From positions 124,126,001-124,190,000 of the forward strand of contig NW_024704742.1 of assembly GCF_018977255.1 (NCBI RefSeq): a stretch of DNA of 64,000 bases. The letters run 5' to 3'. This DNA comes from Callorhinchus milii. Its lineage: Eukaryota. The translations under genes and the position numbers were made by a program. Of this stretch, positions 14,001 through 57,828 are shown one piece after another (positions within the stretch are counted from its first letter, which is position 1; every line of letters begins with the position of its first letter). The notes under the pieces were generated by a model. It made no database searches and was not told the origin of the DNA. It saw nothing but the letters and a program-made list of their open reading frames with translations.

Positions 14001-14479
14001 AGACAGAGCTGTGAAGGTCTTAATTATGAAGACACAATCGGTTGGTGGTTTTACACTGGATTTTAATTAATAGTCCACAGACAATTACAGAGATGGTAGA
14101 TTTTACAGGAACAAAATCATATCTAGCTAGATCTAGGTGATAATTATCAGAACAAAACTATTTTATAACATTAAACAAGACTAACACAATGTGAACTTGT
14201 TTTGTGACACATTACTAGAAATATATTATTTATAATCCAAAAAGTTTAAACACGAAACAAAGATAAGGATCTCAAAATTCCAATTAGCAAACATTTTGTG
14301 CTGGTGGAGATATTCCGGGGAAGGCACACACCTAGGAACATTCAGTAAGAAGGAACGATATACAGCATAGCCTTGTAATGGAAGGGTTCCACTGACAGGG
14401 TAGTTAAGGAGCTGAACAAGGCTTCGAACTTAGCAGCCACCCAAGTGGGAGCAGCTAGTGTTAAAGTTCGACAAAACTG

Positions 14480-14523
14480 CCACAACATTACACAAGCTTT
14501 CATGGGGTCAATAATATTTTATT
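14480..14523 (-). terminator. Polyadenylation signal with downstream GU-rich element
   Basis: AATAAA at 14523-14518, a CA about 16 nt downstream (14503-14502), then TTGTGTAATGTTGTGG at 14495-14480. Confidence 0.55.
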
Positions 14524-15111
14524 ACATTTCATGCCAGACGACAGCAGCTCCTAACCACAAAATGTACTGGGCTTTTCCACCAGTTGAAAACAACAAAAAT
14601 AAAAAATATTAGCACATCGATAAAACTTGCACGCATAAATATTATTTAATGCGTATATAAAACTATTCAAAATATAGGTATATTCACAGGATGGCAATAA
14701 AAACATTGTACCATCACTATTCTTTGCGACTACAATATACCAAGTGAAGATGTTATATGAACAGTGACAGATATATAAACATTCCCCAACATGTGACCAA
14801 AAAAACTTTAACAATGGAAATAACGGTAGGTGAATGACAATTGGTGCAAACATAATACAACATAGTTAAAATACAGTAATTCTTTGAAATTGAAGTCCAT
14901 TTTCACCAACAAATGTTGATTAAAGATGTTGTAGACACAATTTGATTTTCCAGCGTCATAAAGTAACATGTATCTGTCTGCAGTTGAACTGTGAAGACGT
15001 TGTAATATAAATAGACGTGACTGTAGCCATGGGGTGGTGGGGTTCACTTGAGGTCATTTACATTCTTTGTAAGCTTCAAATTGTAGGCAGGATCATATCT
15101 GGGAAGACGAT
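14502..15111 (-). ncRNA. Candidate terminal exon (lncRNA or micropeptide mRNA)
   Basis: Acceptor ctcttatcAG at 15113-15112, then repeat-free, 3'UTR-like U-rich sequence ending in AATAAA and a GU-rich element. Only short ORFs. Confidence 0.5.
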
Positions 15112-15788
15112 CTGATAAGAGGTTGTTTAACATCAGGCCAAGCAGAACTGACTTGTGTGGAGGTTCAATGTATTTCTGTCTATGAGCTCAAAAAGAATGT
15201 TTTAGTTAAAGGAAGATCTTCCCCATTGCAACCTCTTTCCAAACAAATACATTCAATCCTACTATTAAAATTCTGTATGTCTGCATCAGCCTTTAGTATG
15301 ATTGTGCCAACTCTAAACAGCTGTAACAGGCTTAAAGCTGGCAAAACAACAGAATAAACAGAGCTAATGTACAGTTCTCCATAAATCAAACATTAATGAG
15401 ATTCCAAGTAGGATCTTTACGGTGCAAACAGAAATTTTTAACACTGGGTCAAAAAGTCCTACAGAATTTTGCAAGGTTTTAGCATGGATTACATTATTTT
15501 ACTCTCCAAATTCCATCATTAACTCTACAAATTTTTGGCCAGATTTTCCCTTATAGTTCATTGCTTTATACATTTGATATGTGTAAAGATATCAATGTGT
15601 AATTTCTACATTCAACAACAAAGTATAATATTTAGTGTCCCAGAGCACTTGTGATTCAACCCACATATGATTCGTTCCCCAGCCAAAAGCATGACTGAGC
15701 TGTTAGAAAACCTATGCCTGAGGAGATGGAAGAAAATCAAAACATTCAGAAGAATAAAATAGATTGGAATCTTTTCCTCTCAAAGAAC

Positions 15789-15972
15789 CAATGCATCCAG
15801 AAAGAGTTGTGTCCAATCCATACACCAACTGACAGGTCATCAGAGGCAACAGCGGAACGGAATAAAGAGATATTAGTCAATGCATCCAGAAAGAGTTGTG
15901 TCCAATCCATACACCAACTGACAGGTCATCAGAGGCAACAGCGGAACGGAATAAAGAGATATTAGTCAATGC
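15789..15972. repeat. Perfect tandem duplication, 2 x 89 bp, with CAATGC microhomology
   Basis: Units 15789-15877 and 15878-15966, followed by a third caatgc. Confidence 0.95.
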
Positions 15973-15990
15973 TATCAGTTCTGCTCTCAC

Positions 15991-16040
15991 CTTGAGTCAG
16001 CAGCAGACAGGGAGTGCTCAACGTCTCAGGGAGCAAAAAT
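15991..16040 (-). ncRNA. Candidate 50-nt non-coding first exon of an unidentified transcript
   Basis: Runs from the predicted Inr to a strong donor AAG|GTGAGA (GT at 15990-15989); contains no ATG. Confidence 0.5.
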
Positions 16041-16142
16041 GTCTTGAATCCAGTGCAGACTCCTTTATACCAGGTGCAAACAGCAAAATAACATAGCATC
16101 GTAGTGAGCAAGTCAGCTGGGTACATTGGCTCTTTTGTTTAC
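16036..16142 (-). promoter_or_regulatory. Candidate Pol II core promoter (CCAAT, TATA, Inr)
   Basis: On the minus strand: AGCCAAT (CCAAT at 16129-16125), TATAAAGG at 16069-16062, and Inr-like C|ATTTT with +1 A at 16040, 29 nt from the first T of TATA. Also a forkhead TGTTTAC at 16136-16142 and E-boxes at 16071-16076 and 16114-16119. Confidence 0.6.
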
Positions 16143-17475
16143 ATGTTGAATGCGCTCAACCATCACCCAACCGACACACACCATCACAATATTTCTGTTC
16201 TGCTGGTAGGGTTAGAAAGAGGGTATTTGGTCATTAAGCATAGCTCTCTCCCCATTAAATACTTAATTTAATCCAAAATGTCCTGCTCTTCCCCTTCTTA
16301 CTCATTTATAAAGTCTCTCCTTGAATACTTAACTGTTATCGGATTTAAAATCAAAGACATTTTATTTTTTATGTTGTTTAATAAAAAGCTAATGGCAGAT
16401 AGTGGATTTAAACCTCTAATGTAACAATGGAAGAGTTGAATTAGATCAAGCTGTGAGCACAGAAGCCATCTGGATATAACCAGAGAAAGGATGCTGAGCA
16501 ATAAAGGGCAGGAAGCATCGGAAGAGAGCAAGAGGGCTGTCTGTCCAGGGAGAGAAGTCCAGGTTAAAATCAAGAAAATGTTTAAACGTTTAGGTATCAT
16601 CCAGATTCTGTGTGTCCTCTGCAGCTGTGTCCAGCCTGTGGAACACTGAGTATGTTATTCTTAAATGAAAGGTGTGTTTACCCTTAGCTCTTCAGAGGGA
16701 ACTTTAAAACAAGGTTTATTTTTCTTAGTTGCTGCAGTGCACTTAGAGCTCAGCTGTTACTGCCTCTCTCCGGTTCAGTCTGGCCTATCACATCTGTCCC
16801 ATGGGCAACCTGTGAAGTAGAGCCACCAGGCTATGTGTGAACTGTTAGCTGTTTTACTTGTACTTTGTTGTACATCTTTTGTATGTGACTGACTGCATGT
16901 TTTATCACGCTGTGCTTTAGTGTAAACTAGCTGTGAGTAACAAATGACTTATAAAGTATTTAATAGTACTTATTATTTATTGAACCATTCCCTTGCCGTG
17001 CCAATGTTTTCCAGACTACTTTTTAGACTGCATTTGACTTTTGTGAGTTCACAGGAAAAAACACAGGAAACGTTGTTTGAAAGAATACTCGAAGGAAGAC
17101 TCGCAAAGCATTATACAGTATTCTGCAAACATTTAAATGGTCCTTTTACATAGGAACCTAGAGATTTACCAGACTGGAAAAAGAACACTGTGGTCTGTCT
17201 AGCCAGTTCCCAAAACAATTTTAAAAATTCTATACTACGCTCTTGCTGTTAATTTGATTTCTTTGACAAATAGTTTTCTAATCCAATTTTGAGTTTGATG
17301 CCCCACTTCCTCCCTGTATAGTTTATTCCACATATTTACCGTACTCGTGTAAATTAATTACAGTTAAATGGTCTACTCATCTTCCCTCTTCCAAGTTGGT
17401 GGAGTTCCATGTTCTGTTTTGCAGGTCCTTGTGAAAAACAAACCCCAGTGTTTTAGATATATACAGAATTGAACG

Positions 17476-17810
17476 GCTGGCTCAGTTGGTAGAACTCTCG
17501 CCTCTGAGTCAGAAGGCTCTGGCTTCAAACCTGATATTGGGATTACGCAGTGTAAGATGACACTTCAATACAGTCCTGGTTGTGTGCTACATTGTTGGAG
17601 GTGCCGTCCTTCAGATGAGAAGTTAAACCAAGGCCTCATCTGCCTGTTGTAGGTGGACATTAAAGATCTCAAGTCACTACTGTAATTGAAAAGAGAAAGG
17701 AGTTTCTCAAACTGTCCTGCCCAACATTCACCCAAACAAAATGGGTCAGTCAGTTCATGGCTGCTTGTGGTGCATAGCTGTGTGTAAATTGTCTGCCACA
17801 TTCTTCTATA
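17476..17810 (+). mobile_element. Older Deu-domain SINE (SacSINE1-like)
   Basis: Same head and core as the copy at 4461. Further copies at about 5740-6000(-), 9590-9895(-), 11160-11430(-), 35425-35725(+), 39190-39405(-), 58380-58615(-) and 63800-64000(-). Confidence 0.82.
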
Positions 17811-36100: not shown

Positions 36101-36208
36101 AGTATCAGTCTGATGTAAGTAGCTATACAGTAATTACCATCTTATTGATATTGAAGTATCAGTCTGATGTAAGTAGCTATACAGTAATTACCATCTTATT
36201 GATATTGA
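36101..36208. repeat. Perfect tandem duplication, 2 x 54 bp
   Basis: agtatcagtctgatgtaagtagctatacagtaattaccatcttattgatattga occurs twice. Confidence 0.95.
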
Positions 36209-36379
36209 AGACATCTCAATTCAACATTGCAATAAAAAGAGCCATTGAATAAGTACTGCAATGTGTTGGGAAACTCACCTGACAATTCAAGGTACTAAGT
36301 TTTTAAAAGGGTCAGTATATTTGGGCAATATTTCCAAGTAAATGATAGCAATGTCTTTTATAGATGGAAGAAAAGGAAC

Positions 36380-38606: not shown

Positions 38607-38860
38607 TTAGACTCCATCATACTTCTGCAAGGCCTCCTCTAACTTCTCAGTCACCTTCTGGTAAAACTGGATCTGTTGCTGAAGAAACTGTTGCATCTGT
38701 GCCTTGAAGTCCGAGACACGGATTTGATGAAAATGGTGAATCTCTGCCAATGTGGCAAATGAAATAGTGTCACAGCGTTCCCGGACCCCACCGGACTGAT
38801 TCAGTTCTATCTTGCCTTCTTCTACATGCCGTTGGCTCTCCTTTACTTTGGTCAGAGCAC
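38607..38860 (-). CDS. SNX18: Sorting nexin-18, coding exon 2 (C-terminal BAR helix)
   Basis: Acceptor tttgtggcAG at 38862-38861. The phase-1 join restores G-ALTKVKESQRHVEEGK...ISFATLAEIHHFHQIRV...KLEEALQKYDGV*, matching the SNX18 C-terminus, with TAA at 38609-38607. The exons total 1603+254 = 1857 nt, i.e. 618 aa. Confidence 0.96.
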
Positions 38861-39502: not shown

Positions 39503-41552
39503 ACATAACATATAGGAGCAGGAGTAGGCCATTCGGCCCTTCGAGCCTGCCCCGCCATTCAATCATGGCTGATCTTCTAATCTAACTCCAGCTAATAACC
39601 TGACCCTGCCTTATCCCCATATCCCTTAATCCCTTTTGCAATAAGAAATCTATCTATCTCAGTCTTGAATATGTTCAAGGACTGAGCGTCAACAGCCCTT
39701 TGGGGTAGTGAGTTCCATACATTCACCACCCTTTGAGTGAAGAAGTTCTTCCTCAACTCAGTGCGAAAGGGCTGCCTCTGATTTTAAGGTTGTGACCCCT
39801 GGTTTTAGTTTCTCCAACCAGGGGAAACAATCTCCCACTATCTACTCTATCATGCCCTTTGATGATCTTATAGGTTTCTATAAGATCCCCTCTAATTCTT
39901 CTATATTCTAGAGAATATAGGCCCAAATTGGTCAGCCTATCCTCGTAACTCATCCCCTTCATCCCTGGCACTAACCTAGTAAATCTACGCTGCACCCTCT
40001 CCAAGGCAAGTACATCCTTCCTTAAATAAGGAGACCAAAACTGGACACAGTATTCCAGGTGTGGTCTCACCAGGGCCCTACACAGTTGCAGCAAGACTTC
40101 CCTACTCTTATACTCTAATCCTTTCATAATGAATGCTAACATACCGTTCGCCTTCCTAATTGCTGCTGCACCTGCAGACTAACTTTCTGTGATTGGTGTA
40201 CAAGGACACCCAAGTCCCTCTGGACGCTAACACATTCCAATCTCTCCCCTTCTAAAAAATAACCCGCTCTACTGTTTTTGCTACCTAGGTGGATGACTTC
40301 GCACTTCCCTACATTATACTTCATCTGCCACCTACCTGCCCAATCACCTAACCTATCTATGTCTCGCTGCATTTTTTTAATGTCATCCTCTGTGTTGACA
40401 CTTCCTCCTAGTTTTGTGTCATCCGCGAATTTAGATATATTAACTTTGATGTCCTCATCTAGATCGTTGGTAGATGGTAAATATCTGAGGTCCAAGGACT
40501 GATCCTTGTGGCACTCCACTAGTCACATCCCGCCAATCTGAAAAGGACCCATTTATCCCTACTCTTTGTTTCCTACCCATTAACCATTCCTCAATCCACG
40601 TTAATATGCTCCCCCCAATTCCATGGGCCCTTATTTTTTGGACTAATCTTTTATGCGGCACCTTATCGAATGCCTTCTGGAAGTCCAAATAGACCACATC
40701 CACTGATTCACCCTTATCTAGTTTACTGGAAATGTCCTCAAAAATCTCTATGAGATTTGTCAAACATGACTTCCCTTTTGTAAAGCCATGTTGACTTGGC
40801 CTAATTATATTGTGCTCCTCCAAATACTGCACTACCACATCCTTAATCAACGATTCTAAAATGTTTCCTATCACTGATGTGAGAATCACTGACCTGTAGT
40901 TCCCCATCTTTTCCTTTCCACCTTTTTTAAATAATGGTGTGACATTTGCAATCTTCCAATCCATGGGGACTGTTCCAGAATCCAAGGAATTTTGGAAGAT
41001 CAGACATAAGGCCTCCACTATCTCATAAGCTACCTCTTTTAAAACCCTGGAATGCAAGCCATCCGGACCAGGGGATTTTTCACCTTTTAGTGCTAACAGT
41101 TTCCCTAGCACCAATTCTCTACTCATGAAAATTTCCCTAAGTTGCTCCCTGTCCTTATCCCTTTGGTGCATCTCTATTGTTGGCAGACTTGTTGTGTCTT
41201 CTAATGTGAAGACAGATGCAAAGTACCCATTTAGGGACTCTGCCATGTCCTTGTCCCCCATTACAACTTCTCCCGTCGCTGACTGTAGTGGACCTACATT
41301 TACTCTCACTAGGCTATTCCTCTTAATATATTTGTAAAATCTTTTACAATCAGACTTAATGTTCCTAGCCTCATACTCCTTTTTCTTGCTCTTAATGAGT
41401 TTTTTAGTTTTATTTTGCTGGTTCCTAAAACTCTCCCAATCTTCAGATTTGCTGCTTTTCTTGGCAGTTTTATAAGCCTTTTCTTTTAATTTGACTCTTT
41501 CCCTAACTGCTCTAGTTAACTGCGGATGACCTCCCCGTCCTAACTCAATCAC
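39503..41552 (-). mobile_element. CR1 LINE, ~2-kb 5'-truncated copy with a frameshifted RT
   Basis: Three consecutive ORF pieces (41552-40455, 40519-40136, 40142-39753) carry KSPGPDG, QHGF..GKSC, YLDFQKAFDKVPH, VPQGSVLGP, FADDTKL and RPHLEYC; CR1 3' UTR follows. Confidence 0.95.
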
Positions 41553-42544
41553 CTACGTTTCCTTTACTCATACTACAGCAAGGCTCTAGCCTTTTTTTTG
41601 GAGGGCAAGTAAACAAATGTTTGGGTGTCTCCTCCTTTATCTAGCAATACATTTCAAGCACAAAGTTGGGGGATACTCAATAATTTTAAACCAGTTCCTT
41701 ATTTTCTGTAATGAAACAGCAAAGAATATTTCTTGTTGGCAATAAACTCCAGCACCAGTTGGCAGGACGGTCCAGCCAAGAAATTTAAGAAATAACCTTC
41801 CACTTTTGGTAAAGGGACTAATAAGCCACAAAATATTCAGAAACAGAAGATAAAAATATGCAGAGGCTTGGGAGGAAAAACAAGTTGCCAATTTATTTTT
41901 CCACGATAAAGCATCTTCCTGTTCCTCGAAATGTTCATTACTTTAAGCCTGGTCTACAAGAGGTTGTGCTAGTAAACACAGAAAGATTTTAATTAACACT
42001 CTACTGACATGGTTAACATTATGATCTAGTGACCCCCGCTCCTCCATCCCTCCATCCCCACGAAGATCATTCGACTAAATACCAGAGTAAATTCTCAGTA
42101 GTTTCCTCATGGACCCATGGGTGAAAATGAATTATCAGTCACTTTCACTTAAATGCACAGATTGCATCTCACACAGTGATCTGAATTGCAAAAAAATTTT
42201 TTTCTCTTGAAACCCCAAGAGCATTTGTTTATTCTAAAATGTTAAAATGCTCACATCAAGATGAAAACATTCTAATAATTGGCCTGAGATGATGATCTCA
42301 GTTTTCTCAGGAAAGTTATATATTTAATTATCACAGTTTGGATTCTGTTCTTGTGTTTTATCGGGAAGGAGTGGGGGTTAAAAACAAATGTAAAAATCCC
42401 TGCCACTCACTGCCCACAAAGTCTCATTCTTAAACAGACAGAATATGTATTTGACATCAGGGGAGGAGCGGGGTAGGCCATTGCAGACTATGTAGCCAGT
42501 CCCAAAGCTTAAAGAAAACATAAAAACACAGTAAAAAATAGAAG

Positions 42545-43662
42545 CCTATGGTATAAAAGGGACAGTGGCAGCATGGATCCAGAACTGGCTGGGAGACAGA
42601 AAGCAGAGAGGTGTGGTGAATGGCTGCTTTTCTGACTGGAGGGAAGTGTACAGTGGCATCCCCCAGGGATCGATATTAGGACCACTGCTCTTCTTAATAT
42701 ACATAAATGATCTGGACTTGGGTATAGCAAGTAGCATTTCCAAGTTTGCTGACGACACAAAGTTAGGTAGGGTGGTAAACAGTGAGAAGGATAGTAGCCA
42801 ACTGCAGGAAGACATAGACAGAATGGTAAAATGGGCAGACACATGGCAGATGAGTTTCAGTGTGGAGAAATGTGAGGTACCGCATTTTGGAAGAAAGAAT
42901 GAGGGGCAGCAATATAGGCTGGTAATACAATCTTAAGTGGGGGGTGAAGAGCAGAAAGACCTGGGGTTTCAGGTAAATGAATCCTTGAAGGTGGCAGGAT
43001 AGGTAGATAAAGCTGTAAAAAGGGCATATGGGATACTAGGCTTTATAAATAGGGGCCGAGAGTACAAGAGTCAGGAGGTTATGATTAACCTGTATAAAAC
43101 ACTGGTTAGGCCTCAGTTAGAATACTGCGCCCAGTTCTGGGCACCACACTATAGGAAGGATGTTAAGGCATTGGAAAGGGTGCAGAGGAGATTTACGAGG
43201 ATGGTACCAGGAATGAGGACCTTGATTATGAGGAAAGGCTACAGAGGTTAGGATTATCCTCATTGGAGCAGAGAAGGTTACGAGGAGACCTAATAGAGGT
43301 CTTCAAAATCATGAGGGGATTTGATAGGTTAAAAAGGGAAAAACTGTTTCCACTGGTGGGTGTGTCGGTGACTTGAGGTCACAGATTTAAAAAAGTTTCT
43401 AAAAGCAGAGGGGAGGCGAGAAGAAATTTTTTCACACAGCGAATTGTTCGAATCTGGAATGCATTGCCTGAAAGGGTGGTGGAGGCCGATTCGGTAACAA
43501 CTTTTAAAAACGCGGTGGATGGGTATTTGAGGAGCACGGGTTTGCAGGGTTATGGGGAAAGGGCTGGGGAGTTGGATTGACATTACATTGCTCTTTTCAA
43601 AGAGCCGGCATAGACTCGATGGGCCGAATGGCCTCTTTTTGTGCTGTACGATTCTTTGATTA
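42545..43662 (+). mobile_element. CR1 LINE, second subfamily, 5'-truncated
   Basis: WIQNWL..RKQR...GIPQGSILGPLLFLIYINDLD...FADDTKL, with a 3' end gatgggccgaatggcctcttttgtgctgtacgattctttgat. Confidence 0.93.
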
Positions 43663-57569: not shown

Positions 57570-57828
57570 ACTAGTTATCCAGTAAACAAAAGGCAAAGTA
57601 CTGCAGATGCTGGAAGTCTGGTATAAACACAGAAGTCGCTAGGAACATGTAGCAGGTCAGGGAGCATCCATGGAGAGAGGAAAATTAGTTACTGTTTCAG
57701 GTCAATGATCTTTTGTCCGAACTAGTATAAAGGTAATTGACCTGAAACGTTAACTCATTTTCCTCTCTCCATGGATGCTGCCGGCTCTGCTGCGTGTTCC
57801 CAGTGACTTCTGTGTTTATACTAGTTAT
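57570..57828. mobile_element. Inverted pair of Penelope terminal repeats (hairpin element)
   Basis: Arms of ~86 bp at 57621-57706 and 57736-57821 are reverse complements and homologous to 55040-55180; flanked by direct ACTAGTTAT. Confidence 0.8.

Follow-up and report, generated by a model that had tools for sequence, protein, structure and literature searches.

In the reading that we prefer, and to which we give an even chance, the locus proposed as a small two-exon gene at 14480-16142 of the window (the whole 64,000-nt stretch analysed here) is an ordinary, weakly expressed, transposon-containing non-coding RNA. A transposon supplied the downstream half of the locus together with its acceptor, reading-frame tail and poly(A) signal, and one contig is spliced upstream of it.

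Precisely, an old cut-and-paste transposon would have inserted here, lost about 1 kb internally and decayed, and its remnant, an acceptor fused to the last codons, a 3′ untranslated part and a poly(A) signal, would amount to a ready-made terminal exon. A weak minus-strand Pol II RNA, beginning at or above 17490 from a promoter of its own or as read-through from the SNX18-like gene, would be spliced into an acceptor at 16199, in single-copy DNA. The 50-nt "first exon" of the earlier note would be the 3′ end of a 209-nt exon, which probably ends at the donor at 15990. From there the RNA may continue to the transposon acceptor (15099 being likelier than 15112) and end at the AATAAA, or it may end earlier. 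It would not code for protein, would be lineage-specific and probably has no selected function.

If this is true, the locus is one more transposon-fed non-coding RNA and matters little. The gains are a repeat family, old and apparently unclassified, with a probable fossil spliced gene, which should be masked in the genome, a testable candidate for a GG-AG or polymorphic donor, and a caution: what looks like a "complete gene architecture" may owe half of its parts to a repeat that went unrecognised.

Origin of the proposed second exon

The approximately 610 nt ahead of the poly(A) signal had been described as repeat-free. A search of the genome (991.5 Mb) with 14480-15200 contradicted this, with at least 30 matches elsewhere at 65-87% identity (26 of 26 candidates were scored, and 30 is a lower bound). 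With sibling copies as queries we obtained at least 49 and at least 40 matches. The siblings reach past the window fragment on either side. Within the proposed intron, the 3′ half is the same element: 15110-15790 had 41 other matches, 39 of which begin at 15552-15518, and similarity to siblings continues on the other side to about 14309. One sibling matches 15424-15097 and, after 1 kb more, 15096-15030; the window copy is therefore internally deleted, with the joint at 15097/15096. We therefore describe the element as an internally deleted, old terminal-inverted-repeat element at 14309..15551 on the minus strand, with its 5′ terminus near 15551; its 3′ terminus was not found in the window copy.

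The ends of the element repeat each other imperfectly in inverted orientation over about 40 bp, with a mean of 21.3 of 40 positions matching over 49 pairs and 31 of 40 in the best inverted pair, against 15.1 +/- 3.2 for shuffled and 13.6 for direct controls. Both termini were found in four of 14 ten-kb loci (a fifth had a weak 5′ score), and the copies having both ends were 2231-3413 bp long; loci at the window's own place, duplicate loci and alignments scoring under 40 were dropped before these counts. Dispersed copies with common ends and terminal inverted repeats are what a class II relic should have, and by these comparisons 15551-14309 is a decayed DNA transposon copy. Old copies of this repeat family, 2.2-3.4 kb long and with inverted termini and a fossil frame, lie at loci L031-L036, L066-L073 and many others. 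Two other origins were rejected: a processed-pseudogene family, as the siblings lack exon 1 and extend both ways, and a solo LTR, an idea prompted by an inverted pair of 7 nt, as the true inverted ends lie beyond that pair and direct repeats did not turn up.

The frames of the element were compared in 12 aligned copies, dropping columns with letters in fewer than seven of the 12 rows. The sense frame had no majority stop for 148 codons, against four to eight in each of the other five frames, and it ends where the window reads MILPTI*. This micro-ORF (15076..15096, minus strand) is thus the end of the element's fossil frame, namely its final six codons with the stop, the TGA being present in 10 of the 11 copies with letters there. 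The frame was probably spliced. Another frame, reading ...YNLKLTK..., had been tried as the element ORF and was discarded, a different one being open.

As regards the acceptor, the AG proposed by the earlier note does end at 15112 (15112..15113, minus strand), but the choice is doubtful: the pyrimidine tract before it scores 11 of 19 and AG is found there in three of the 10 siblings with letters, whereas for the CAG at 15099..15101 (minus strand) the tract scores 14 of 19 and AG is found in seven of the nine siblings with letters (both sibling counts were made by eye from the aligned rows). Because of this retention behind a pyrimidine tract, 15099 is probably the element's own splice acceptor. 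The AATAAA at 14518..14523 (minus strand) also comes from the element: of nine aligned copies, three have it exactly and six with a single differing letter. The acceptor region, MILPTI*, the 33-aa ORF discussed below and the AATAAA all lie inside the element copy, and the internal deletion brought the acceptor up to the last codons, with the 3′ untranslated part and the poly(A) signal following directly. The 3′ half of the "complete Pol II architecture" comes from a transposon and does not speak for a selected gene.

The window copy is no better preserved than its siblings when conservation is compared among paralogous repeat copies rather than orthologues: in the exon part it scored 0.68 against 0.674 for the siblings (range 0.62-0.72; eight of 18 higher), and in the intron part 0.614 against 0.627. 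It has diverged as much as they have, and therefore gives no sign of selection.

PIF/Harbinger elements are described as having inverted repeats of 25-50 bp (PMC9179366). On that description our element is alike in its inverted repeats of about 40 bp, in the remains of a gene that has a reading frame, a poly(A) signal and probably an intron, and in copies of 2.2-3.4 kb. It differs in that we detected neither a DDE transposase nor a Myb-like domain: Pfam gave 0 of 36 element fragments at the cut-off, and a profile search gave two weak matches, to a FLYWCH-repeat protein and a Gly/Thr-rich protein (E 1e-4 and 1e-3), which we judged spurious. A single-protein search of the genome gave eight matches, with a longest open frame of 105 aa and no intact copy; a protein atlas search gave no usable match, tblastn against the element gave no match to the frames of six of the 11 PF13359 loci, and there was no codon periodicity among the element copies. 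Absence of a transposase is expected for a decayed non-autonomous element. As regards a 3-bp target duplication, the flanks are often T-rich triplets, and none of the both-ended copies has a clean pair. Since neither kind of domain nor a clean duplication turned up, we left the family unclassified. Superfamilies besides PIF/Harbinger also have GG termini, and the element may belong to one of them. The family may already be named in Repbase or Dfam. Separately, two loci of the genome (L094, G000:C19, and L095, G000:C21) carry DDE_Tnp_4 frames that are intact and free of stops (419 and 371 aa), which are probably domesticated Harbinger genes.

Transposons supply 12.7% of the poly(A) sites in the lncRNAs of zebrafish and 29.9% of those in a human set, and DNA transposons are the main zebrafish source of lncRNA transposon sequence, according to figures given by Kapusta et al. 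(2013, PMC3636048). As transposons commonly supply lncRNA poly(A) sites, the locus would join the known transposon-fed lncRNAs. It is like the transposon-derived exons described in that paper in having unique upstream exon(s) beside a transposon with acceptor and poly(A) site ("PolyA+SPL") and in being lineage-specific; unlike them, the transposon exon is here a candidate, and the upstream splice was seen in one contig.

RNA contigs and the upstream splice

Eight of 12 sequencing runs, all carrying one organism label, contain part of the stretch, and the four presumed RNA runs contain 8-14% of the words. We compared contigs from X1, X2 and X3 (presumed RNA) and X5 (unlabelled, taken as DNA) over a 12-kb stretch.

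One contig from one probable RNA run is spliced. X2 record 11 (272 nt, depth 15.7, 0 other letters) joins 17386 to 16199, aligning as 17490-17386 plus 16199-16033, and its letters 168-272 give an upstream exon piece at 17386..17490 (minus strand, 0 other letters). The joint implies a 1186-nt intron at 16200..17385 (minus strand), with donor GAG/GGAAGA and acceptor CTAAC...CAGCAG. It is near-canonical, of GG-AG type with G replacing T at +2: a CTAAC resembling a branch site precedes a pyrimidine tract, and the donor agrees at six of eight positions; a random joint would be as splice-like with a probability of about 3e-5 to 8e-5, by a crude motif count. Judged by these splice signals, the RNA would be of the minus strand. 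Since the contig runs through the CCAAT, TATA and initiator motifs, the supposed promoter was exonic in this molecule. A candidate 209-nt internal exon, single-copy, would extend over 15991..16199 (minus strand): 16199-16033 is in the contig, and the remainder is suggested by the donor at 15990, of which the contig end at 16033 falls 42 nt short. We also considered whether the TATAAA might serve that end as a non-standard poly(A) signal and set the idea aside, the distance of 31 nt being marginal.

The claim of an unannotated lncRNA may therefore be right in kind, as a spliced minus-strand RNA has some support from this contig, but the molecule begins at or above 17490 and not at 16040. The contig could come from very few molecules. 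The X2 depth of the bin 16015-16415 derives from record 11 alone (6.54 computed against 6.52 listed). Depth was 0 for X2 and X3 in the bins 15213-16014 and for X3 in the bins 16015-17217, and 0.18 for X1 in 16015-16415; none of these stretches of missing cover was taken as evidence. X5 has an unbroken contig over 15943-17233.

Given the GG donor in the assembly and the 2-nt AG repeat at the joint, the X2 record may reflect a polymorphism or an error of assembly, a non-canonical site of a rare kind, template switching at the repeat, or a deletion allele carried by the animal sampled. In the account of U2-like non-canonical introns in PMC4176328, SNPs and template switching are given as sources of such joints, with a warning that SNPs produce false non-canonical sites; the X2 joint is alike in its consensus-like context and non-GT donor. 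Position 17384 is the single base that makes the donor GG and not GT, and may be a polymorphism or an assembly error.

The GG donor also bears on a second reading, less probable than our own and in our opinion doubtful, that the locus makes no stable transcript: the promoter motifs would be chance occurrences, the transposon's 3′ signals inert, and the contigs would come from stray pre-mRNA, from carried-over DNA or from a single molecule that is mis-spliced or an artefact. Such a view is helped by the neutral divergence of the element copy, by the frequency of such motif sets in shuffled sequence (44 of 300 windows, see below) and by low-depth contigs in both proposed introns (X1 15159-15273 and 15498-15705; X2 16543-16770) and over the acceptor, which the X1 contig 15022-15188 (depth 3.1, no strand) crosses unspliced. 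Contigs of X2 and X3 also extend beyond the proposed cleavage site, again with no strand; these and the unspliced contigs may be DNA carry-over. It fits poorly, however, with a joint whose acceptor side carries a branch-like CTAAC, a pyrimidine tract and CAG and whose donor agrees at six of eight positions, and with the depth of record 11, which exceeds that of the adjoining X2 pieces about threefold (15.7 against 4.9 and 6.0). The X2 and X3 contigs, which are from one study, stop at 14484 and 14483, and X5 continues past.

Promoter-like motifs and their chance rate

The ordered minus-strand motifs of the earlier note are all where it had put them, with correct spacing. Its positions and both of its micro-ORFs stood, while the repeat-free UTR and the statement that there are only micro-ORFs did not. 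The CCAAT lies at 16125..16129 and the TATAAAGG motif, TATAAA(GG) from 16069, at 16062..16069 (both minus strand and within the candidate 209-nt exon); the initiator is an A at 16040 in an imperfect context, and the TATA is likewise imperfect. The candidate donor GTGAGA at 15985..15990 (AAG/GTGAGA, minus strand) agrees at eight of eight consensus positions. The region 15900-16300 is single-copy (two matches, both within its own locus).

Core promoter, donor, acceptor and poly(A) motifs thus occur in the order of a TATA-driven two-exon gene, and how rare this is depends on the definition used. Among 200 dinucleotide-shuffled windows, a definition fitted to the site gave no match (0/200) and a medium one a match in 35%; with a loose one the window had 10 matches against a shuffle mean of 9.98. 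CCAAT, TATA, initiator and donor together had at least one match in 44 of 300 shuffled windows, so that a promoter-plus-donor set is expected in about one window in seven, and the same definition gave one match in 366,931 bases of control loci, from which the window's own place and duplicate loci had been removed beforehand. An AATAAA follows 300-2000 nt downstream of 477 of 610 arbitrary positions. In the preferred reading, the CCAAT and TATA would be exonic look-alikes.

A third reading keeps the promoter: it would be real in some tissue, its short first exon being captured by the acceptor and poly(A) signal of the transposon to give a two-exon lncRNA, and the upstream-spliced form would be a second isoform. 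We regard this as unlikely. For it speak the correct order and spacing in single-copy DNA, the perfect-consensus donor, the usable acceptor and AATAAA downstream, the 0/200 of the site-fitted definition and the fact that under the medium and strict definitions this is the sole such site in the window. The expected joint, 15991^15111, is absent from the 15 joints listed, and the 2262 others outside that list could include it. Against it, the one spliced contig observed traverses the promoter, the TATA and initiator are imperfect and the set is matched by chance in about one window in seven, and the X1 contig is unspliced across the acceptor. An upstream start in one sample may nevertheless be compatible with a TATA start in another tissue.

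Reading frames and neighbouring sequence

In the preferred reading the RNA is non-coding. The earlier note had allowed only micro-ORFs, overlooking a 100-aa ORF that starts with ATG (14551..14853, minus strand). This ORF is rich in Cys, Tyr, Phe and Ile, has no Pfam match, is preceded by eight upstream ATGs in the exon and is private to the window copy. An ORF of 100 aa was found in 27 of 3000 shuffles and in none of 18 siblings, where the longest was 55 aa; as several frames were inspected, this shuffle rate of 0.9% is not strong, and the ORF probably arose by chance. The 33-aa ORF at 14956..15057 (minus strand) lies in the element's 3′ untranslated part. Its start codon is private to the window copy, the ATG occurring in none of the 12 siblings with letters there, and ORFs of at least 33 aa were found in 2312 of 3000 shuffles. 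The micropeptide idea thus has no support, MILPTI* being the tail of a transposon frame, and we found neither coding constraint nor ORF conservation in the comparison with paralogous copies.

Upstream, the ATG at 16099 (A at -3, no G at +4) opens a frame that runs through to the donor, and both joined frames are open, with 59 aa through the acceptor at 15112 and 43 aa through that at 15099. It is preceded by three ATGs whose frames are short and by one other frame that is open. Neither the unspliced 45-aa frame from 16099 nor the 33-aa ORF had a Pfam match.

A young peptide-coding gene, translated from 16099 or from the 100-aa ORF at 14853, is in our judgement very improbable: the ATG at 16099 does lie within the exon covered by X2 with its joined frames open, and the 100-aa ORF is rare in shuffles and absent from siblings, but Pfam matches none of these frames, both starts stand behind other ATGs and the element copy shows no excess conservation. 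Its boldest form, to which we give hardly any credence, makes the dead transposon a natural gene trap, in which a new CCAAT/TATA or SNX18-like read-through over a genuine GG-AG intron would feed an acceptor that the deletion had put 2 nt from the last codons, and a chimeric peptide of 43 or 59 aa would be translated; in this slowly evolving cartilaginous fish we would then be looking at a gene in the act of being born. If true, this would be the sole case of interest to specialists in gene birth. Phospholamban and sarcolipin are TATA-driven two-exon micropeptide genes with a short non-coding first exon and the ORF in exon 2, and that ORF is conserved, single-copy and codes for a membrane helix. 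Here, in contrast, exon 2 is a repeat relic and the ORFs are private to the window copy.

The candidate is located in a 57-kb gap between two convergent genes. The SNX18-like gene is on the minus strand, with SH3, PX and BAR domains, and its last coding exon (38610..38859, PF10456) is 21 kb upstream of 17490. On the plus strand, a frame with cadherin-like repeats ends in QYWV, its stop being about 18.7 kb left of the window. This frame (L039 8115-10000 plus L038 1-1246, plus strand) has 687 codons and is the last large exon of a cadherin-like-repeat proteoglycan gene, which we take to be CSPG4B-like. Rfam gave 0 matches in 10000-40000 of the window, and a literature search by titles and abstract openings found nothing on the locus or the repeat.

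The spliced contig terminates just within a high-copy short repeat at 17477..17700 (plus strand), which had at least 39 other matches at 75-80% identity among 40 scored of 5316 candidates for this stretch, and which is presumably SINE-like, with tRNA-type A and B boxes spotted by eye. Inside the proposed intron is a perfect tandem duplication of 89 nt x 2.1 at 15789..15972, one of three such duplications in the window that are 100% identical (the others being 646-728, 41 nt, and 36101-36210, 54 nt) and that are either recent events or assembly artefacts. Within the intron of the SNX18-like gene we observed an inverted repeat at 57618-57824, with 96-nt arms that are 85% complementary and 15 nt between them, and reverse-transcriptase-like fragments on both strands at 39750-42950, which we assume to be LINE remnants.
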